Shown piece after piece: positions 20,468-51,646 of a DNA stretch of 64,000 nucleotides; the first letter of the stretch is position 1, and every line of letters starts with the position of its first letter. The translations under genes were made by a program, and so were the position numbers. The DNA comes from Escherichia phage vB_EcoM_Lutter. The stretch lies in sequence record NC_054924.1; one strand, 5' to 3'. The notes beneath the pieces are model-generated. The model worked only from the letters and a program-made list of their open reading frames with translations, had not been told where the DNA came from and ran no database searches.

Positions 20468-20995
20468 TTATGCGAGTACCGTCTTTAACCGTTCTTCAAA
20501 CTTCCGAAGAGTATTCTGGCGTTCAGCTCTTTGCTTTTTGTAAGTTTCAATACGCTCTGAAATGAGAGTGTATCGTTCATTTACTGATTCTTTCATAAAA
20601 TCAGGAATTTCACGAGAAGATTTAATCTCGTCAAATTTATCAATAACAGCTTGCTCTTCAGCAATTAAGTTATCATACATCAAAATATCTTTCTTGATGA
20701 ACTCAATATCTTCTTGAGTTACACGAGATAATTTAGATGCTTTATCCTTTTTGTACTGTTCATTAGTATCACGAGACCAGTGTAATGTACGATTTTTATT
20801 CGTATTTTTGTAAATTTCTACAATACCGATCTCATCAATAATAACGATCCAATTCCAACGAGATTTGTAAATTTGCCCTCCATCAACCGTGATTTCACCT
20901 CCGATTGAGATGTCATTAAAGAACTTGCTTTGTGCTTCAGATTTAAATTTACCATCATTGTAGTTTACCAAGTTGAAAATATCTTTAGCATTCAT
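20468..20995 (-). CDS. hypothetical protein; start trimmed to MNAKDIF
   Basis: Track ORF reads through the promoter motif; GGAGG ribosome-binding site before ATG at 20995. Confidence 0.5.
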   Translation of the reverse strand: MNAKDIFNLVNYNDGKFKSEAQSKFFNDISIGGEITVDGGQIYKSRWNWIVIIDEIGIVEIYKNTNKNRTLHWSRDTNEQYKKDKASKLSRVTQEDIEFIKKDILMYDNLIAEEQAVIDKFDEIKSSREIPDFMKESVNERYTLISERIETYKKQRAERQNTLRKFEERLKTVLA

Positions 20996-21023
20996 TTTCT
21001 GTTCCTCCGTAGTTGATAGTTGT

Positions 21024-21052
21024 ATAGTACCACAGAGGAACGGTCTTGTAAA
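21024..21052 (-). promoter_or_regulatory. early promoter
   Basis: TTTACA-17-TGG-TACTAT, then conserved ACAACTATCAAC. Confidence 0.6.
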
Positions 21053-21055
21053 CAA

Positions 21056-26481: not shown

Positions 26482-26771
26482 TCAGTCTCCAATTTAATGT
26501 TCATAATTCTAGCGTATGATTGTGCCATCTCCGCGCCTCGTTCTATACATTCAAAATCAGAAGAGCACGGGTCATTTTTATAGGTCGTTCTCATAAAACT
26601 ATAGAATTGTTCAGACGATTCTACGCTTTTATTTTCAAAAAGCATATAAACGTGCCTAATACCAGATTCCATAAATTTATCAAAATGAGGATCGACATTC
26701 GCTTCAATCGGTGGAGATAAAGCAAACGCTAATCCTAGCATGGCAAATAGTGCCGTTGCTTTTAAGGCCAT
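26478..26771 (-). CDS. rI: lysis inhibition regulator RI (periplasmic antiholin)
   Basis: 97 aa; N-terminal signal-anchor MALKATALFAMLGLAFALSPPIEA; T4 RI length and position. Confidence 0.75.
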   Translation of the reverse strand: MALKATALFAMLGLAFALSPPIEANVDPHFDKFMESGIRHVYMLFENKSVESSEQFYSFMRTTYKNDPCSSDFECIERGAEMAQSYARIMNIKLETE

Positions 26772-28864: not shown

Positions 28865-29208
28865 CTAGTACTCAATCCTCGATTATAAGAATCTACCAAA
28901 CGGTCAACCATTGAATGACAAGCGGCTTTATCTTTCTCCTCCGCAACTGAACATTCTAAGGTATTCCACTTTTTAGCATATCGTTTTAACAATGTATCAT
29001 TTTTGTATCTGCTTGATTTATCTCTTTCTCCGTCTTTATATGCATATATTAATTTCTGCGCAAATTCAGCTTGGCATGCTTTATTTTTCCCGCAATAATC
29101 CGCTGCAGTACGGTTTACATACTCTCTAATTTCAGTATATGATGTATCTGCTAACGCAGAAGCAGAAAATGAAATTAATCCTATACATAAAACCAAAATT
29201 TTAGTCAT
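28861..29208 (-). CDS. small secreted protein (positional candidate for vs)
   Basis: 115 aa; N-terminal signal peptide MTKILVLCIGLISFSASALA. Confidence 0.45.
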   Translation of the reverse strand: MTKILVLCIGLISFSASALADTSYTEIREYVNRTAADYCGKNKACQAEFAQKLIYAYKDGERDKSSRYKNDTLLKRYAKKWNTLECSVAEEKDKAACHSMVDRLVDSYNRGLSTR

Positions 29209-29746
29209 TTACTATTTCCAAAAGTTTATTATTTTTAAGGTAATTAGCCTTTTCTAGGACTTCAGAAGCATATTTAGAACCAGCTTTAACATTCCATCCC
29301 GAATTATAAGAGGATATTGCTTTTCTTATATCGCCCTTATGTATATTTAACCAATAAGAAAGTTCAATGTACGCCCAGGAAGCTGAATTGGATCGTTTAT
29401 TCAACATTCTTTTTATTTCAGCATCGGTCATATTATAACCAAGTTCCTTAACTCTCGCTCGCATAGTAGGCAAATAATTTTGGAACATTCCGTAGGCGTG
29501 ATGCTTTGGTTTAGATTTTAAATTAACTCCGCCAGAGCTTTCTTGCCATAAAATGGCTGCCATTATATGACCTAATCCGCTCTTGTGGATATTTTTGTGT
29601 GTTTTATATTTTCCATCCTTAGAAAATTGTTCCCCGAATTGATACGCGTAACGCATGTTATCGAGTTGGACATTACTGAAAGTATGCTCGGAGCTATGCG
29701 CCATCATTGAAATGGCCAATAGACCAGCGAGTAGTGCTTTTCTCAT
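29201..29746 (-). CDS. periplasmic lytic transglycosylase-like protein (SLT domain)
   Basis: 181 aa; signal peptide; motifs AILWQESSG, AYGMFQ, SSYNSGWN. Confidence 0.65.
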   Translation of the reverse strand: MRKALLAGLLAISMMAHSSEHTFSNVQLDNMRYAYQFGEQFSKDGKYKTHKNIHKSGLGHIMAAILWQESSGGVNLKSKPKHHAYGMFQNYLPTMRARVKELGYNMTDAEIKRMLNKRSNSASWAYIELSYWLNIHKGDIRKAISSYNSGWNVKAGSKYASEVLEKANYLKNNKLLEIVND

Positions 29747-29753
29747 GCTTACC

Positions 29754-30215
29754 TCATTGAGTTTTAATTACTGCTTTAGAAGCCTTTCCTGGTAAACGAC
29801 GACTGTTGATAATTGCCATCCTGCATTGAAGTGACGGGTTTTTGAACTTCTCATTAGGCTTACAAACTGTAAATCCAAGCCAAAGATTTCCATCTGTGAT
29901 TTCTAAACGTCCAGGACGATATTCAACCCCATCAATAAAATCCTCATCAATGTCAGGACGCGGAGGCATACTCAGGAATTCATTAACTTCTAAAACATGG
30001 TCTTTTATTTTATGGAATAATTCAAAAACATATGTCTCATCAATCTCCCGTTGAATTGCACGATCAAGAAGATGCTGAGAATATTTTAGATGAAACGATG
30101 AGACCCCTGCTGCTTTTGATGCCTCACGAATCTCATTGTTAATTTGACGAAACTCCGACTCAAAGTGACGACGAAGCTTATTTCGACGGATAAAAACTTC
30201 TGTATTGATAGTCAT
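29754..30215 (-). CDS. regB: site-specific endoribonuclease RegB
   Basis: 153 aa; MTINTEVFIRRNKLRR...; size and position of T4 RegB. Confidence 0.7.
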   Translation of the reverse strand: MTINTEVFIRRNKLRRHFESEFRQINNEIREASKAAGVSSFHLKYSQHLLDRAIQREIDETYVFELFHKIKDHVLEVNEFLSMPPRPDIDEDFIDGVEYRPGRLEITDGNLWLGFTVCKPNEKFKNPSLQCRMAIINSRRLPGKASKAVIKTQ

Positions 30216-30242
30216 GTTATTCTCCTCTTAACTGATAGAAAA

Positions 30243-30271
30243 ATTATACCACAGTCAAGAGGAAAAGTAAA
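30243..30271 (-). promoter_or_regulatory. early promoter upstream of regB
   Basis: TTTACT-17-TGG-TATAAT. Confidence 0.65.
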
Positions 30272-30274
30272 CAG

Positions 30275-30553
30275 TTATTCTTTAAATCTAATCAATTTAT
30301 TCATAGACTTTGAAACTTCTGCACGAACCTCATGTAGATTTTTGAGCTGTTCAAGACGCTGCTCATAGTAAGCAATTTCATCTTCTTCGAGACAGTCCTG
30401 TGAATCTTCTTTAAGATAACGTGCATAGTCCTGGAAAGCTTTACGGACTACTTCCTGGAAGTCATCAAGACTTTGAATTTTCTTAGGAGCAACAGATACA
30501 CGACGAGGGGCAGTATAATACTCATAACCAAACCCTGCGCTTAATTGAGCCAT
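30275..30553 (-). CDS. hypothetical protein; start trimmed to MAQLSAG
   Basis: TAATG stop/start overlap with upstream gene. Confidence 0.45.
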
Positions 30554-30819
30554 TAGTATTTTTCCTCTGGTTGGAACACAGCACGGCAAGCCCACATACT
30601 GGCTTCTTTGAGTTTCGTTTTAGCAATAGTTAACTGATCGAGGCTTTCGGCGTAATTCTTCGCGAGTTCATCATCTTCACAGCTATCAAATGCTTCCCAG
30701 AATTCATCATATAAAGCATCAAAGATAAGCCCTAAACGAACTTCAGCATCTTTGATAGCATTCACTTTACTGATTTTATCGTCAGTATGTGGTTTATAAC
30801 CTTTAATGTCTTCAATCAT
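30553..30819 (-). CDS. hypothetical small helical protein (positional candidate for vs.4/Acb2-type)
   Basis: 88 aa; position two genes upstream of regB. Confidence 0.35.
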
Positions 30820-31033
30820 ATTTTACTTCCTCACCTGTTCCCAAATCATATTCAACTAAACGAATAGGTTCATGAATGCCATATCCTTGAACAGAAATTT
30901 CTGTCGTAGGATAAATTCCATTAATATCACCCATGTTCCATACTTCGTTAAATTGCTGTTCGCCTGAATTACTAAACCACTCGGCGAAAGCATTTAGCAC
31001 ATCTTCAGAACCTTCAATAATTATCTTTGCCAT
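30812..31033 (-). CDS. hypothetical protein (73 aa)
   Basis: ORF. Confidence 0.45.
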   Translation of the reverse strand: MAKIIIEGSEDVLNAFAEWFSNSGEQQFNEVWNMGDINGIYPTTEISVQGYGIHEPIRLVEYDLGTGEEVKYD

Positions 31034-31395
31034 TACAAACTCTCGGTGAAGGTACGAGCGATAACGTCGCGCTGCTGTTCCGGAGTCAGAGAGTTAAAGC
31101 GAACTGCATAACCGGATACACGGATGGTCAGCTGCGGATATTTTTCCGGATGCTTAACTGCATCTTCCAGAGTTTCACGACGCAGAACGTTAACGTTCAG
31201 GTGTTGACCACCTTCAATTTTAACTGTAGGCTGTTGCTCAATTTCAATTTCACGGGCATGCAAACCATAGAAAATTTCTGGGTCTACAAAAGAGTCCTCT
31301 TTAAAGGTTTTAGAGACAATAATTCGTGCTTGAATACCATCTTCAAAATAAATAGTACCTTTATGTGTGCCTTCAAGAATTTGATATGCTTTCAT
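31033..31395 (-). CDS. autonomous glycyl radical cofactor-like protein (GrcA/YfiD-like C-terminus)
   Basis: 120 aa; C-terminal [27 protein letters not shown] glycyl-radical fingerprint; N-terminus unrelated. Confidence 0.7.
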
Positions 31396-31402
31396 ATAAA
31401 CC

Positions 31403-31732
31403 TCAATTAGAAAATAAATTTATCCAAGATTGTTCTTTAATTAAAAATGGCTCAGAATCATATGCCATTAAACTCTGTGTGATTAGTCCTTTAAAAGGCC
31501 CATCAATAAATTCCATGGTAAAATATGGAATTTTATTCATTAGCCGTGCATTAGGAGCAGTACACAAAACTCTGCATCCTTTGAATACGCCTTTTTGTAA
31601 TTTGTATTGCTTAGGATAAAATTCGCTCAAGACGTTGTTATTTGCCAAAATTTCAAAATGATTCACCAATTTATTTTTAATAGTTTTTGGCGAAAAATAA
31701 AGATATTCGAAAAGCTGAGTGTCTGTCATCAT
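31403..31732 (-). CDS. hypothetical protein (109 aa)
   Basis: ORF. Confidence 0.45.
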
Positions 31733-31865
31733 TGCATTCCGATTACGAAAAACTGTGGACGAGTAATACCATCAATGCAACATTTAATATTACAGCAGCA
31801 GTGTACAGTGTCAATATGGACACTATAAATCTTATCCATATCAGGAGATTTGACAGGCTCATCAA

Positions 31866-32315
31866 TTATATACAAAATTCGCGAAAGCGATAAACCTCTG
31901 AACTTGCTTCCTTTATTACCAATAAACTGCGCACAGAATCAGTAAATAAACGAAAACGTATATCATCATTAGAATAACGCGAAAATTCCTTTTTAATGTT
32001 ATTTGCAGAAATTTTAGCGTAAGCTGAAGTATTAGAAAGAACAATAACTGTTCCGCCATCATACAACCAATTAGCAGCAAAGTTAGTCACAGCAATTGAT
32101 TTACCAGATTGACGTCCACCATCTAGTCGAAGTGTGCAATACTGTTTGAGTAAGTCTTCAAATGGTGGGATATAATCGTTTTTACAAATTTCTTCTACTC
32201 TAGCATCAGAATGGTGTGTAAAAGCATTCATCAGGGATAGATAAGGACCAGTTAAAAATGTTCTCATTTTGTTATCTCTAAATTTGGGCCATTCCGTGGC
32301 GCGTGAATTGTCCAT
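31866..32315 (-). CDS. hypothetical protein with P-loop-like motif
   Basis: 149 aa; GGRQSGKS. Confidence 0.45.
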   Translation of the reverse strand: MDNSRATEWPKFRDNKMRTFLTGPYLSLMNAFTHHSDARVEEICKNDYIPPFEDLLKQYCTLRLDGGRQSGKSIAVTNFAANWLYDGGTVIVLSNTSAYAKISANNIKKEFSRYSNDDIRFRLFTDSVRSLLVIKEASSEVYRFREFCI

Positions 32316-32444
32316 TTCTGTATTTACCCATTACCGCACTTGGGATCGACCTTATTACAGGTTGGCGGGAATCCCTCACAGAATCATGAGGTCCAGCTTG
32401 TTCCCATGTTATTTGAATATAAATAGTCCTAAGTATAGGCCTTA

Positions 32445-33023
32445 TTAATTACCACGGGCTGCATTAGCAACGGCATAAGCGTACTGAACATTAGCGTCCT
32501 TAAACGTACCTTTAGAGGTATCTATTTCTGCCTTAAAGCCGCCTTTAGCCATAACATCGGCAAATTCTTTACGGAAAGCCATTGCATCAAGACCTTTCCA
32601 TGATGATTTGTGCTTAGCGAATTCAAGACCAGCGTAGTTGACAGCCTTAGCTAATTTATTATCAATGACCCATTTACCGGCTTTAGGCACAAACTTCGGG
32701 CCTTTTTGTTTAGAGAACAGTTTTAAATTCCAGCGACGAAGATCACTGTCGGCTTTAACAAAAGCTGCGTCTAAGTTACTAGCAACAACATCTTCAATAT
32801 GAGCAAATTTAAGTCCGTCAACTTCAATATTTAAATCGGTACGCCAGCGAAGTCCTTCCCAAGCGAAAGCTTTAAAGTCAGAAGCCTTTGTAGCTAAGTA
32901 TCGTTCAATAGGAGCTGTTTTAGGGTCAAAGCCGTTTCCCGATCGATAGGTCCACTCATCTTTATTAATGCCTTTGGCCTTTTCCACAGAAGCTTCAGCG
33001 ATAAATTCTTTATACGTTTTCAT
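32445..33023 (-). CDS. head internal protein with capsid targeting sequence
   Basis: 192 aa; N-terminus MKTYKEFIAEA. Confidence 0.7.
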   Translation of the reverse strand: MKTYKEFIAEASVEKAKGINKDEWTYRSGNGFDPKTAPIERYLATKASDFKAFAWEGLRWRTDLNIEVDGLKFAHIEDVVASNLDAAFVKADSDLRRWNLKLFSKQKGPKFVPKAGKWVIDNKLAKAVNYAGLEFAKHKSSWKGLDAMAFRKEFADVMAKGGFKAEIDTSKGTFKDANVQYAYAVANAARGN

Positions 33024-33053
33024 TTTTGTTTCCTTGTTTGTTTTGATAGAGTA

Positions 33054-33082
33054 ATTATACCATATTAATACTTAAGCGTAAA
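33054..33082 (-). promoter_or_regulatory. sigma-70-type promoter upstream of internal protein gene
   Basis: TTTACG-17-TGG-TATAAT. Confidence 0.5.
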
Positions 33083-33086
33083 CCGT

Positions 33087-33348
33087 TTAAGCTTCACCGC
33101 CAGAAATAATTCCGAAGTTGTTAAAATCGTATCCAATATCGTCAACATCTACTTTAGGACTTGTAGCAACATAAGCAATTTCACTGCGTTTTGCATAGGT
33201 GTTGATTTCTTTACCATCACCACCTAAGAAAAAAATACCCATTACGTTTTAATGAGCCAAAATCTTCGGCATCACCAACGAAAGCTTTAACTTTAAATTT
33301 GGGGCCTTTGGCATCTGCTTCAGCGATAAATTCTTGATACATTTTCAT
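33087..33348 (-). pseudogene. frameshifted internal-protein gene
   Basis: MKMYQEFIAEADAKGPKF... halts after an A7/T7 run at 33229-33235; one fewer base gives an ~86-aa ORF to the TAA at 33087. Confidence 0.5.
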
Positions 33349-33354
33349 TTTTCC

Positions 33355-33768
33355 TTAGTAAATTGATTTACCATAGTATTTGTACCAAGTCGGACGTTGA
33401 GCAATTTTTTCATCTAAGCGTGCTTGACTTATCGCAATGGACGCTTCGGACGGGACATAATTATTACGAAATTCGGCAGGGATGTCGGAAATATCCTGGA
33501 CTGTCGTGTCCTTGATTTTGAAACCACGTTTCAAGCATTCGGCGATTAGCTCGATTTGTCGTAAACGTAAAAATTCAAGTTTGTCGTAAAAGAATGTTAC
33601 GTGACCTGTGCCTAAGATAAATGTTGGAGAGATTTTAAAATCCTTTACACGTTTACCGTTTTGAACATGTTTACGGACTGCACCAAATACGCGTGGTAAT
33701 TCACGATACTCAGCCATAAGATGTTGGTCGGTCAGTTCAGAAACAAGTGTTAAATTGATACGAGTCAT
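33355..33768 (-). CDS. denV: endonuclease V (pyrimidine dimer DNA glycosylase)
   Basis: 137 aa from [12 protein letters not shown]...; T4 DenV size. Confidence 0.88.
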
Positions 33769-33795
33769 AATTTCCTCCAAGTAGTTGATGAATGT

Positions 33796-33824
33796 ATAGT
33801 ATCAAAACCCTTGGAGGAAGTAAA
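33796..33824 (-). promoter_or_regulatory. early promoter upstream of denV
   Basis: TTTACT-17-TACTAT; spacer holds the arm complementary to the denV ribosome-binding site. Confidence 0.6.
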
Positions 33825-33827
33825 CAA

Positions 33828-35068
<1,241 letters not shown>

Positions 35069-35087
<19 letters not shown>

Positions 35088-35557
35088 TCAGTGATAAAGC
35101 TATTTAAATTTTGAGCATATTTCTTTTCATCATAAATCTTTTGCTGTCTGCGTAAACGCCATGGCATTTCAATGAACGTGTACCATATCCCAGATAATAT
35201 TGCTGCTGTAAAAATATTAACAAGTATGGTTAAAATAATCCAATCTCCCGTTCTGTCTACTGGACTTTCTCCAAAGAAGCAAAATACAAATGATGTCACA
35301 GGAAAACTAATAATATACCACAGAATCATAATCTTATCTGTGAACCAATCAGTGTTCGTTAATTTAGCGCGACCATTATGAATACACACGAATTTATCAT
35401 CTGTTGCAGTAGATGGCTTAACTGGTTGATATCCCATTCTAAACTCCCTAATCAGCAAATTTTTCATATCTTCGGAACAGCCATTCCAGTCAACTCTATC
35501 AACTGAAATGCCATCATCCCCATCATCTAAATCATACCAGCGAGTTTTTAAAATCAT
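35069..35557 (-). CDS. membrane protein, tandem paralog 1
   Basis: 162 aa; TM helices; C-terminal ...FITECRKLK. Confidence 0.5.
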
Positions 35558-35928
35558 TTGATTTTCCTACAATCATTCACGAATTCTTTCATTGATTCAT
35601 TTTCAATATAAGACATGTAGTTATTATATTCTTTTAATTGTATTTTGTAATCCTTTTTTCTTTGCCAATTTATTTTAAAATTATCATAATGAAAATATAA
35701 AATAATACCAAAGAATGAAAATAATGAAATCGCTATAGTATAATGAAGTTCACTCCAAACTTCTATTATATCTACTATACCGCTGACATTACTGCGGATG
35801 TTTAAAATAATACAGTCAATCATTAATCCAATAAGACTACCCGCAAGAGCTGCAGCCAACGCCACAGCAAAAATTAAAAATGACTCAGAAAACGAATATT
35901 TGACTTTATTTAGTTTTGGCTTTTGCAT
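35554..35928 (-). CDS. membrane protein, tandem paralog 2
   Basis: 124 aa; C-terminal ...FVNDCRKIK. Confidence 0.5.
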   Translation of the reverse strand: MQKPKLNKVKYSFSESFLIFAVALAAALAGSLIGLMIDCIILNIRSNVSGIVDIIEVWSELHYTIAISLFSFFGIILYFHYDNFKINWQRKKDYKIQLKEYNNYMSYIENESMKEFVNDCRKIK

Positions 35929-36323
35929 CGTGATTCCTTAACAAATTTCATAATTTCATCAAATTCATACGCGGCAAGTTTAAGCTGATGTTCCTTTTTA
36001 ATCTTTTTACACTGTGCTTTCCAATCACGTACACGTTTACGATAATGTCTTCCTTGATACCAATATCCTATCCAATTTACAGGTACTAATAAAAGTGGAA
36101 CTATTAATGGAAGAATTAGCATTAACACAAGTATTTCGCCAGAATCAATATCAGTCATAACATCTAAAACACCTCCAATAATCAATAGAATTACAAATGA
36201 TATGAGTATAACAGGACCTATTAACACATCAGTAGAAATTATCTGGCGCTTTAATTCATACTTTAAGGGTTTACTTGGAAGATACATTGATGGCTTTGAC
36301 ATATTCTCTACATTCCTTAACAA
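35910..36323 (-). CDS. membrane protein, tandem paralog 3
   Basis: 137 aa; C-terminal ...FVKESRCKSQN. Confidence 0.5.
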   Translation of the reverse strand: MLRNVENMSKPSMYLPSKPLKYELKRQIISTDVLIGPVILISFVILLIIGGVLDVMTDIDSGEILVLMLILPLIVPLLLVPVNWIGYWYQGRHYRKRVRDWKAQCKKIKKEHQLKLAAYEFDEIMKFVKESRCKSQN

Positions 36324-36879
36324 ATTTTTCTAATAATAAATCGCTTTCAAAATTAGGATTTTCCACGAATTTATCAAAAAGATCATCAACGATAGTTAAG
36401 ATATTCTTTTTATTAAGAATACGCTTATTTTCATATTTTGTTTCAGAGTCAACTATAAGAGTAAAGAAATATTTCTTTCCCTGAAATTTTACCGTAGTAT
36501 CAATATAGAACAAATTTGACTTTTGTAAATTACGTTTAAACCATGCGTCACTTAAACTATAAACGCCAAGATAATCATAATCGTCGTTTAAATAACAAAC
36601 TGTCCATTCAGGAGAAATGAAATCAGTAAATTCAACATCAAAATCACATGTCAATGAATGAATCGATTCAATACTTTTAATAAGTATTCCAGGACGTATT
36701 AAAGACTTTTTACCTCTGGAAAATCTTCCAGAAAGACTTTCATTAGTTTCATATGAAGAACCCCAATAATAATTACGCCCTTCTGCCATACGTTTAAGAG
36801 CATTTAGTAATTGATCTGGAACATCAACCTGTCTTTGGAACTCTTCAAACATTGAATTGAAATCACTTTGCATTTTCAT
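36271..36879 (-). CDS. hypothetical protein (start possibly downstream Met)
   Basis: 202 aa ORF. Confidence 0.5.
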   Translation of the reverse strand: MKMQSDFNSMFEEFQRQVDVPDQLLNALKRMAEGRNYYWGSSYETNESLSGRFSRGKKSLIRPGILIKSIESIHSLTCDFDVEFTDFISPEWTVCYLNDDYDYLGVYSLSDAWFKRNLQKSNLFYIDTTVKFQGKKYFFTLIVDSETKYENKRILNKKNILTIVDDLFDKFVENPNFESDLLLEKFVKECREYVKAINVSSK

Positions 36880-43095: not shown

Positions 43096-43109
43096 ACAAC
43101 TTTGTGAAA

Positions 43110-43807: not shown

Positions 43808-44520
43808 TATAGTACCTTTAGTGTATTTTTAATTTTAGAAAAAAGTTCTTCAAGAGAACCATCGTTTGTAATTACTAAATCGCCATTACGAATTGGCAAT
43901 CCAGCTTCTGTAATATGAGTATCATTGGATTTTTGACCAGGACGAACTACATGAATTACTGTAGCACCCATCGCCCTAGCCGCATCCATTTCATGATCTT
44001 GACGAGTATCAGGAACGATATAATAATCATAACCTGAGTTAAATTTATCAAGATAATCTAAAGCAAATAATTTTACCCAATACATGCGGTCGAAGTTATT
44101 AACAATCAAATCCGTACCTAGGGCTTGCATCAGACGACGGACTGACCATTGATCTTCAATATTATTTATAACGTCAGCAATCTTGTTAAATGCTACGAAA
44201 TTAACTGCGTCATCAAAAACAAACACACCTTTAATTGGGCTTTTACTATTAAGATAGCAAAATGCTTGTTCCATAATCGTAATTACTTCTAATTTAGTCA
44301 GATTTAAATTAGTTTCACGATCATAGTCAATTCCTTCAAACTCTTTACGAGTTAAACAAGGATAGTCAGTGTTTGCTGCAAATACACCCCATGCATAAGC
44401 CAATGCATCCTTAATAGGACCAGCAAGTTGATATTTAACTGCAGAATAATTATTCATAATAAAATCTGCAGTAGTATCTTTTCCACTACGCTTTACACCA
44501 CTTAAAAAGATTAGTTTCAT
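43807..44520 (-). CDS. 1: deoxynucleoside monophosphate kinase gp1
   Basis: 237 aa; P-loop GVKRSGKDT. Confidence 0.85.
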
Positions 44521-49663: not shown

Positions 49664-51646
49664 ATGGCAAATACCCCTGTAAATTATCAATTAACAAGAA
49701 CAGCAAATGCTATTCCCGAGATATTCGTCGGGGGTACGTTTGCTGAAATAAAACAAAACCTCATTGAATGGCTTAATGGTCAAAATGAATTTTTGGATTA
49801 TGATTTTGAAGGCTCAAGATTAAACGTTCTGTGTGACCTTTTGGCTTATAATACGCTGTACATTCAACAGTTTGGTAATGCTGCTGTGTATGAAAGCTTT
49901 ATGCGTACTGCTAACTTACGAAGTTCAGTTGTTCAAGCTGCACAAGATAACGGATATTTACCTACTTCAAAATCCGCTGCGCAGACCGAAATTATGTTAA
50001 CATGCACCGACGCATTGAATAGGAATTACATTACTATTCCTCGCGGAACTCGCTTTTTAGCATATGCAAAAGATACTTCTGTTAATCCATATAACTTCGT
50101 TTCTACCGAAGACGTTATTGCTATTCGTGATAAAAATAACCAATATTTTCCACGTTTAAAATTGGCTCAGGGACGTATAGTAAGAACTGAAATCATTTAT
50201 GATAAATTAACACCTATTATCATTTATGATAAAAATATTGATAGAAACCAGGTTAAATTATATGTTGATGGAGCGGAATGGATTAACTGGACGAGAAAGT
50301 CAATGGTTCATGCTGGTTCAACATCAACGATTTACTATATGCGTGAAACTATTGATGGAAACACTGAATTCTATTTTGGCGAAGGTGAAATTTCTGTTAA
50401 TGCTTCTGAAGGAGCTTTGACCGCTAATTATATCGGAGGTCTTAAACCTACCCAGAACTCTACGATTGTTATTGAGTACATCAGTACTAACGGTGCAGAT
50501 GCGAATGGTGCAGTCGGATTTTCATATGCAGATACATTAACAAATATAACTGTCATCAATATTAATGAAAATCCAAACGACGACCCAGATTTTGTCGGAG
50601 CAGATGGCGGCGGTGATCCAGAAGATATTGAACGTATTCGCGAATTGGGTACTATTAAACGCGAAACCCAGCAACGTTGCGTAACTGCGACTGATTATGA
50701 TACATTCGTTTCAGAGAGATTTGGTTCTATTATTCAAACTGTTCAGACTTTCACTGATTCTACTAAACCTGGGTATGCATTTATTGCTGCTAAACCTAAA
50801 TCAGGATTGTATTTAACTACTGTGCAACGTGAAGATATTAAAAATTATCTCAAAGACTATAATTTAGCTCCTATTACGCCATCAATTATTTCTCCTAATT
50901 ATCTTTTTATTAAGACTAATTTAAAAGTCACATATGCTTTAAATAAGCTGCAAGAATCCGAACAGTGGCTCGAAGGTCAAATAATTGATAAAATTGATCG
51001 TTATTATACCGAAGATGTAGAAATTTTCAACTCGTCTTTTGCCAAGTCTAAGATGTTGACATATGTAGATGATGCAGATCATTCTATCATTGGTTCATCA
51101 GCGACAATTCAAATTGTTCGTGAAGTACAAAACTTCTATAAAACGCCTGAAGCAGGTATTAAATACAATAATCAAATAAAAGATCGTTCTATGGAATCTA
51201 ATACGTTTTCATTTAATTCTGGACGAAAGGTTGTAAATCCTGATACTGGTTTAGAAGAAGATGTATTATATGACGTTCGTATAGTATCAACAGACCGAGA
51301 TTCTAAAGGAATTGGTAAAGTTATTATTGGTCCATTTGCTTCTGGCGATGTTACAGAAAATGAAAACATCCAGCCGTATACAGGCAACGATTTTAACAAA
51401 TTAGCAAATTCTGATGGACGCGACAAATACTATGTTATCGGTGAAATAAATTATCCAGCTGACATGATTTATTGGAATATCGCTAAAATTAATTTAACAT
51501 CTGAAAAATTTGAAGTTCAGACTATTGAATTATATTCTGACCCAACCGATGATGTTATCTTTACTCGCGATGGTTCACTGATTGTATTTGAAAATGACTT
51601 ACGTCCACAATACTTAACTATCGATTTGGAGCCTATATCACAATGA
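49664..51646 (+). CDS. 6: baseplate wedge protein gp6
   Basis: 660 aa; T4 gp6 length. Confidence 0.9.
   Translation: MANTPVNYQLTRTANAIPEIFVGGTFAEIKQNLIEWLNGQNEFLDYDFEGSRLNVLCDLLAYNTLYIQQFGNAAVYESFMRTANLRSSVVQAAQDNGYLPTSKSAAQTEIMLTCTDALNRNYITIPRGTRFLAYAKDTSVNPYNFVSTEDVIAIRDKNNQYFPRLKLAQGRIVRTEIIYDKLTPIIIYDKNIDRNQVKLYVDGAEWINWTRKSMVHAGSTSTIYYMRETIDGNTEFYFGEGEISVNASEGALTANYIGGLKPTQNSTIVIEYISTNGADANGAVGFSYADTLTNITVININENPNDDPDFVGADGGGDPEDIERIRELGTIKRETQQRCVTATDYDTFVSERFGSIIQTVQTFTDSTKPGYAFIAAKPKSGLYLTTVQREDIKNYLKDYNLAPITPSIISPNYLFIKTNLKVTYALNKLQESEQWLEGQIIDKIDRYYTEDVEIFNSSFAKSKMLTYVDDADHSIIGSSATIQIVREVQNFYKTPEAGIKYNNQIKDRSMESNTFSFNSGRKVVNPDTGLEEDVLYDVRIVSTDRDSKGIGKVIIGPFASGDVTENENIQPYTGNDFNKLANSDGRDKYYVIGEINYPADMIYWNIAKINLTSEKFEVQTIELYSDPTDDVIFTRDGSLIVFENDLRPQYLTIDLEPISQ

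Follow-up and report, generated by a model that had tools for sequence, protein, structure and literature searches.

The regB leader and its early promoter

The window, by which we mean the whole 64-kb stretch of DNA that was analysed, is a segment of a Tequatrovirus genome, and the region considered here lies on its minus strand, where regB is found between vs.3 and vs.1 in a gene order collinear with that of T4. The product of the regB reading frame matches the Pfam family PF10715 (REGB_T4) over residues 3–151 with an E value of 5.9e-69 and 231 bits (cut-off 27), and is 100% identical to the RegB protein from several Tequatrovirus phages, the search having yielded roughly 1,100 regB loci. 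The gene is thus regB, as the original prediction had called it, and the possibility named there of its being another gene is set aside. The 1 kb around the regB leader is matched by 654 phage records, T4 at 97.3%, and the leader itself is identical to the T4 leader. According to the literature, regB is non-essential in laboratory hosts. Directly downstream of regB, vs.1 (29201–29746, minus strand) contains a match to the SLT lytic transglycosylase domain PF01464 (E 1.4e-5; 25.1 bits, with a cut-off of 21.3).

The vs.3–regB intergenic region is 59 nt long and reads, on the minus strand, TAA-CT-G-TTTACT(30271–30266)-TTTCCTCTTGACTGTGG-TATAAT(30248–30243)-TTTTCTATCAGTTAAGAGGAGAATAAC-ATG(30215–30213). 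The features of the gene and its leader are the following.

29754..30215, minus strand: regB coding sequence, 153 aa plus stop (open reading frame list, Pfam and annotation of the T4 homologue)
30215..30225, minus strand: candidate RegB/S1 target GGAGAAUAACA, 11 nt, a 10/11 match by eye to GGAGRAYARAA
30222..30225, minus strand: GGAG, core of the Shine-Dalgarno (SD) sequence and RegB cleavage motif, with the cut expected between 30224 and 30223
30220..30234, minus strand: 3' arm of the hairpin, CAGUUAAGAGGAGAA, covering the whole SD (repeat search, RNA folding)
30235..30251, minus strand: 17-nt loop with the -10 hexamer and the predicted transcription start (repeat search, RNA folding)
30236, minus strand: predicted transcription start, the A of AUCAG..., 7 nt past the -10
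30243..30251, minus strand: extended -10, composed of TG (30251–30250), G and TATAAT (30248–30243) (promoter scan)
30252..30266, minus strand: 5' arm of the hairpin, UUUUCCUCUUGACUG, an anti-SD in the promoter spacer (repeat search, RNA folding)
30266..30272, minus strand: -35 element, G-TTTACT (promoter scan; GTTTAC precedes most early-type promoters in the window)
30273–30270 with 30218–30215, minus strand: weak lower helix of 4 bp, UGUU with AACA (MFE and centroid of the 71-nt fold)
30277–30275, minus strand: vs.3 stop codon TAA, 3 nt ahead of the G of the regB -35

The TTTACT-17-TATAAT promoter that had been proposed at 30243–30271 was recovered, together with its TG, as the best sigma-70 match (10/12) in a scan of 29600–31200 (1.6 kb), and the same bases are annotated independently as a 'predicted early promoter' in the near-identical Tequatrovirus fPS-65. 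It displays the GTTTAC-type -35, the 17-bp spacer and the TGn-TATAAT of T4 early (sigma-70) promoters, an architecture that recurs at 17 other sites in the window, and published work describes the regB promoter as immediate-early, with shut-off 2–3 min post infection. A late promoter (TATAAATA) is absent near regB, the nearest on the same strand being at 34628 and 34615. By analogy with ATCAAC-type starts, transcription would begin at 30236, ~21 nt ahead of the AUG. ATCAAC(TAC) is a conserved initial transcribed motif at many minus-strand early-type promoters (42767, 38520, 33825, 22492 and 21053), whereas the initial transcribed bases at regB are ATCAGT.

The original prediction had paired the regB SD region with a segment of the promoter spacer through a 12-bp imperfect inverted repeat, and the repeat was found to be longer than claimed. 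The 12-nt arms (30223–30234 and 30252–30263) are 11/12 complementary as DNA, the lone mismatch being a G.U pair in the sense RNA, and the repeat extends to 15 nt (30220–30234 and 30252–30266; 87% as DNA, with 17 nt between the arms), the 5' arm having base 30266 in common with the -35 hexamer. All 15 positions pair in the sense RNA (30266–30252 with 30234–30220), 13 of them as Watson-Crick and two as G.U pairs (30264.30222 and 30256.30230), to form a stem that covers AAGAGGAGAA. The lower helix UGUU/AACA takes in the A of the AUG and is not conserved. The 5' arm is positioned wholly upstream of the -10 (30248–30243) and is therefore present only in RNA from upstream promoters; transcripts begun at the regB promoter, from the start predicted above, lack it.

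Folding predictions gave the stable pairing on which the original prediction depended. The predicted energy is -21.4 kcal/mol for the 51-nt core (z -5.7; 0/200 dinucleotide shuffles as stable) and -23.1 kcal/mol for the 71-nt leader (z -5.2; likewise 0/200 shuffles), the hairpin is still the centroid structure in a 141-nt context, and in a 112-nt read-through context the GGAG of the SD is paired with a probability of 0.99–1.0. RNA reading in from upstream promoters is thus predicted to hold the SD in a stable local helix. The promoter-proximal transcript, by contrast, gave folds of 0 to -1.2 kcal/mol, the latter for RNA begun just past the -10 (z +0.9), and should be unstructured. The MFE folds represent RNA on which no ribosome is terminating at the vs.3 stop, which lies 8 nt ahead of the stem. 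When 51-nt segments were slid along both strands of the window, 19 of 42,634 (0.045%) reached -21.4 kcal/mol or lower, the background having a mean of -5.9 and an sd of 3.3 kcal/mol; the 19 segments fall into ~7 loci that include the regB hairpin, which ranks ~7th among the local structures of the window. Other very stable hairpins in the same scan (-19.5 to -25.5 kcal/mol), at 49696–49746 on the plus strand and at 43931–43981, 26687–26737 and 35471–35521 on the minus strand, apparently lie within coding regions. A search of the leader against Rfam 15 returned no family at gathering score; the only two matches, both to snoRNAs, were at the level of chance and fell well short of that score (E 0.54 and 0.75). 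A reading of the hairpin as an intrinsic terminator was rejected: the stem is followed by UAACAUGAC, which has no U tract, and the minus-strand terminator scan was empty here.

Conservation and covariation of the spacer/SD pairing

Across 500 Tequatrovirus records, identity in the 91-nt leader is 97.8% or higher. Four leader variants from this genus were inspected, and their changes lie outside the stem with the exception of phage F26 (locus L158, position 61, corresponding to window position 30230), in which a U to C change converts a G.U wobble into a G-C pair. For a wider comparison we assembled the regB loci of 13 diverged GenBank phages and 51 IMG/VR contigs, which yielded 37 distinct promoter-leader segments. 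A pyrimidine anti-SD was found in 12 lineages, placed directly after the GTTTAC-type -35 and pairing with the SD of regB: T4/Tequatrovirus, Mosigvirus p000v, Gelderlandvirus STP4-a, Citrobacter phage CF1, Karamvirus CC31, Serratia phage CHI14, Kanagawavirus CIP9, a QL01-like group, EcS1, Pectobacterium phage PM2, Roskildevirus Cronus and Jiaodavirus KPV15. The SD lies within the stem in 12/12 of these lineages, and the promoter-proximal transcript is predicted to be unstructured in all of them (0 to -0.5 kcal/mol). Past the CUCC/GGAG core, the sequence of the stem varies by lineage while its complementarity is kept, as seen in the distal arms of T4 (CUCUUGACUG/CAGUUAAGAG), Mosigvirus (CUCUAGUUG/CAACUAGAG), CF1 (CCUGUAAGU/ACUUACAGG), CHI14 (UCCUCAUUUG/CAAAUGAGGA) and CIP9 (CCUUUUAGU/ACUAAAAGG). 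The SD is GGAG or GGAU in all regB relatives examined; it is GGAU in Krischvirus ECD7, and a review gives the same for the related phage RB49.

When the promoter-leader segments were aligned whole with MAFFT, the arms fell out of register and the GGAG columns were shifted, and this alignment was discarded; anchored ungapped blocks and an alignment-free swap test were used instead. In the block alignment each sequence was anchored on one MFE base pair, and under this procedure, which favours pairing, standard pairs occupy 80% of cells compared with 66.2 +/- 1.6 in column shuffles (0/500). Compensatory changes on both sides were observed at 8/13 pairs, amounting to 38 cells compared with 13.8 +/- 2.8, and the covariation score was 0.316 compared with 0.099 +/- 0.019 when shuffled (0/500), falling to 0.126 or less when the partner was slid by 1–3 columns. 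The swap test was added because it is free of the bias introduced by anchoring on an MFE pair. Each spacer paired with its own leader gave a mean of -18.05 kcal/mol over the 12 lineages and permuted partners gave -11.79 +/- 0.84 kcal/mol, with 0/20000 permutations as good; the result stands after the seven lineages that lack the device are added (-13.04 vs -8.45 +/- 0.58 kcal/mol). Covariation in 12 lineages thus indicates, at the level of sequence, that the spacer/SD pairing is under selection, and the G.U pairs together with the F26 variant point to selection on the sense-strand RNA and not on a DNA palindrome.

The promoter is present and the spacer anti-SD absent in Gaprivervirus VR25, Tegunavirus fHe-Yen9-01, Biquartavirus avDM5 and Muldoon. 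Marfavirus EK29 likewise lacks the spacer anti-SD, its hairpin spanning the -10 and not involving the SD. A proximal regB promoter is missing altogether in Krischvirus ECD7 and in a Gualtarvirus. The device can therefore be dispensed with. In VR25, fHe-Yen9-01 and Muldoon the -10/discriminator pairs weakly with the SD (-7.5 to -10.8 kcal/mol), for example as TATGAT-TATCC ~40 nt upstream of regB. This segment is likewise upstream of the expected start, and its pairing may represent an alternative placement that follows the same logic.

A predicted translational gate at regB

The RegB/S1 target has the consensus GGAGRAYARAA, and RegB requires single-stranded RNA and is inhibited by structure (PMC1702504). 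RegB cleaves the GGAG of its own SD, which constitutes autoregulation (PMC3014915, summarising Sanson and Uzan; Piesiniene et al. 2004), and cleavage at the regB GGAG is reported in a review for T4, whose leader is the one present here. The features of a self-cleavage site are observed in the regB leader, in which an intergenic SD GGAG is followed by A-rich sequence and is unstructured in the predicted primary transcript. The hairpin, as modelled, should hide this GGAG from both RegB and ribosomes, while the primary transcript should be open to both. The original prediction held that regB would be gated by structure in read-through RNA as well as by its own nuclease target; both parts find support in sequence analysis and in the literature, with the refinement that the two gates act on different RNA populations. 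Autoregulation and the hairpin involve the same GGAG (30225–30222) with its A-rich continuation, in a leader that is as in T4, but in autoregulation a protein acts on the open transcript, whereas the hairpin is formed by the RNA itself in cis and would spare long transcripts this regulation.

We consider it probable that the leader functions as a translational gate, such that regB is translated only from its own early promoter, read-through RNA is silent, and RegB is made in a sharp early pulse. This reading, to which we attach fair confidence, draws on the anatomy, predicted thermodynamics and covariation described here, and on the literature for promoter class and timing, self-cleavage and the need for single-stranded RNA; from these we infer the site of transcription initiation, the production of read-through RNA and its amount, and the block to translation. 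In the first state, RNA polymerase would begin at GTTTACT-17-TATAAT and produce an unstructured mRNA without the 5' arm, on which ribosomes would load at the GGAG and RegB, once accumulated, would cut the same GGAG. In the second state, polymerase would arrive from upstream promoters and transcribe the spacer, which would fold at once onto the SD across the 17-nt loop; the resulting 15-bp stem, at ~-21 kcal/mol, would enclose both the SD and the RegB/S1 site, with a weaker hold on the A of the AUG. No RegB would then be made from read-through RNA, which would also go uncut by RegB at the vs.3–regB junction, and this would limit RegB synthesis to the short period in which its own promoter fires. 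A stem of -21 kcal/mol over an SD is far above what the 30S subunit tolerates.

Early-type promoters are positioned upstream on the minus strand at ~33083 (GTTTACG-17-TATAAT) and ~33825 (the denV promoter), and the terminator scan of the minus strand between 36500 and 30200 found no terminator-like site. MotA-box middle promoters were sought on the minus strand over 30200–36500, where there was no full match and one loose TGCTT at 33177; the source of read-through is therefore taken to be the early-type promoters at ~33083 and ~33825, possibly with later or late transcription from upstream. Given these promoters, the tight packing of the genes and the lack of a terminator, read-through into regB would be expected. 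RegB cuts the ribosome-binding sites of many early T4 mRNAs, and the early-to-middle switch includes the confinement of its own production to the first minutes. If regB is silenced on long RNA, a conserved cis structure would form a third layer of this limitation beside promoter shut-off and self-cleavage.

The predicted arrangement resembles that of the T4 genes e, soc, 49 and I-TevI, in which long transcripts keep the SD/AUG sequestered while those begun at a late promoter within the hairpin region leave it accessible, the gene e hairpin being credited with a 100-fold drop in lysozyme synthesis (PMC3014915). The gene e leader, which we used as a positive control (34588–34640, minus strand; lysozyme AUG 34594), contains two late promoters TATAAATA, at 34628 and 34615, as well as the published structure, and folds at -14.9 kcal/mol (z -4.5), so that this experimentally validated hairpin is weaker than that of regB (-14.9 vs -21.4 kcal/mol). 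In both cases the SD lies in a local helix whose 5' arm is in or upstream of the promoter, so that promoter-proximal RNA misses the arm. The internal promoter of e, soc, 49 and I-TevI, however, is late (gp55) and delays expression, whereas at regB the late sequence that defines this class is replaced by an early sigma-70 promoter, and the predicted effect is the opposite, with expression only in the first minutes. The logic of a hairpin combined with an internal promoter would then also switch genes off after the early period, besides switching them on late. In phage Aeh1, Gibb and Edgell reportedly described in 2009 an RBS-sequestering hairpin at mobE, work cited in PMC3014915. That hairpin likewise hides the RBS of a nuclease gene inside a longer transcription unit, but it belongs to another phage, gene and promoter class.

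The regB promoter, the gene and its self-cleavage are already known, as is the SD hairpin relieved by an internal promoter. The review PMC3014915 does not name regB among its hairpin examples, and we found no description of the regB leader hairpin in the accessible literature; older regB papers may mention it, the likeliest being Ruckman 1989, Valerie 1986, Sanson and Uzan 1993/1995, Piesiniene 2004 and Miller 2003. Nor did we find there an account of the use of an early promoter in this way at regB, of the covariation across genera, or of the sharing of the device with denV and nrdC.8.

The device at denV and nrdC.8, and alternative explanations

Of the early-type promoters in the window, 18 have a gene close by, and all of these were scanned for spacer/SD complementarity, which is strong at three of them, those of regB, denV and a homologue of nrdC.8. 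The spacer/SD duplex reaches -21.6 kcal/mol at regB (z -5.8 vs shuffled spacers), -18.9 kcal/mol at denV (z -4.9; -35 at 33825, AUG 33768) and -20.0 kcal/mol at the nrdC.8 homologue (z -5.7; -35 at 21053, AUG 20995); the other 15 promoters are without such complementarity (-0.6 to -9.5 kcal/mol). The two additional leaders are arranged as follows.

33762–33826, minus strand: denV device, GTTTACT-TCCTCCAAGGGTTTTGA-TACTAT, in which UUCCUCCAAG pairs with CUUGGAGGAA ahead of the AUG (-19.1 kcal/mol, z -3.9)
20989–21054, minus strand: device of the nrdC.8 homologue (175 aa), GTTTACA-17-TACTAT, in which the spacer anti-SD GUUCCUCUGUGGU pairs with ACUACGGAGGAAC (-19.4 kcal/mol, z -3.7)

Relatives of denV and nrdC.8 have the same device with other stem sequences, and in some denV relatives the anti-SD is placed in the discriminator, between the -10 and +1. 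The denV SD is described in the literature as RegB-resistant in vivo, and nrdC.8 undergoes only moderate RegB cutting (Durand et al. 2006). Since denV and nrdC.8 share the device, the hairpin is no speciality of regB, which weakens the specific link between hairpin and RegB implied in the original prediction and points to the device as a general way to restrict the translation of a gene to its own early promoter.

The denV leader also bears on the explanation that we rank next to the translational gate, although we regard it as unlikely, namely that the hairpin is an mRNA-stability device that hides the GGAG from RegB and opposes a stem to 3' exonucleases, the translation block being a side effect. 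Such a device would keep the polycistronic vs.8...vs.3-regB-vs.1-vs-tk RNA intact, and it accords with the inhibition of RegB by structure and its need for a single-stranded GGAG (PMC1702504), with the enclosure of the whole 11-nt RegB/S1 site in the stem and lower helix, and with the presence of genes downstream of regB with no predicted terminator between. denV, however, has the same device even though its SD is RegB-resistant for reasons of sequence, so protection from RegB is not the general selective reason, and a pure 3'-end stabiliser would have no need of an SD, yet the SD lies in the stem in every one of the 12 lineages. The stability and translational-gate functions are compatible and not mutually exclusive.

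Translational coupling, in which ribosomes terminating at the vs.3 stop would melt the stem and regB on the long RNA would depend on vs.3 translation, appears improbable. The vs.3 stop is positioned 8 nt upstream of the first stem pair, with similar spacing in other lineages, and judging from standard footprint sizes a terminating ribosome would open the lower helix UGUU/AACA; by standard distances, however, a ribosome at the stop would reach only 1–2 of the 15 stem pairs and leave ~13 bp over the SD. We give even less credence to the view that the repeat functions as DNA and governs promoter activity, whether as an operator bound by a protein or as a cruciform around the -10. The repeat arms do flank the -10 hexamer, and several other early-type promoters in the window have -10-centred hairpins clear of the SD, but the arm sequences vary by lineage with complementarity kept and so provide no conserved recognition sequence, the two sense-strand G.U pairs do not match in DNA and read A.C in the opposite strand, pairing in the RNA is improved by the F26 variant, and the SD is always within the 3' arm. 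A fortuitous, functionless match between a pyrimidine-rich spacer and a purine-rich SD is strongly disfavoured and hardly credible: the CUCC/GGAG core alone gives cross-lineage duplexes of ~-11 kcal/mol, so that part of the pairing is due to conserved motifs, but no shuffle (0/200) or permutation (0/20000) equalled the observed pairing, compensatory changes occur at 8/13 pairs, and the complementarity is missing at the 15 other early-type promoters of the window.

Extending the translational gate beyond regB, we tentatively suggest that T4-like phages may use a general immediate-early-only gate, in which an anti-SD placed in the non-transcribed part of an early promoter leaves read-through RNA silent. 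The anti-SD would reside in the spacer or, in some lineages, in the -10/discriminator, and the RNA silenced would be delayed-early, middle and late read-through, a picture that we find plausible without yet favouring it. If true, the general gate would be the mirror image of the late-gene gate of e, soc, 49 and I-TevI and could help explain the brief RegB pulse. As the device is common to denV and nrdC.8 and co-varies across genera, it is perhaps a design rule of use in annotating or engineering T4-like genomes.

Hairpins centred on the -10 and without an SD, with folding energies of -8 to -19 kcal/mol, were also observed at minus-strand promoters with the -35 at 43097, 42767, 25266, 18069 and 38181. 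Their arms lie mostly upstream of the expected start, as in GAUGAGGUAGUGAUACUAUUACCUCAUC at 43097, and the Marfavirus regB promoters resemble these promoters of the window.
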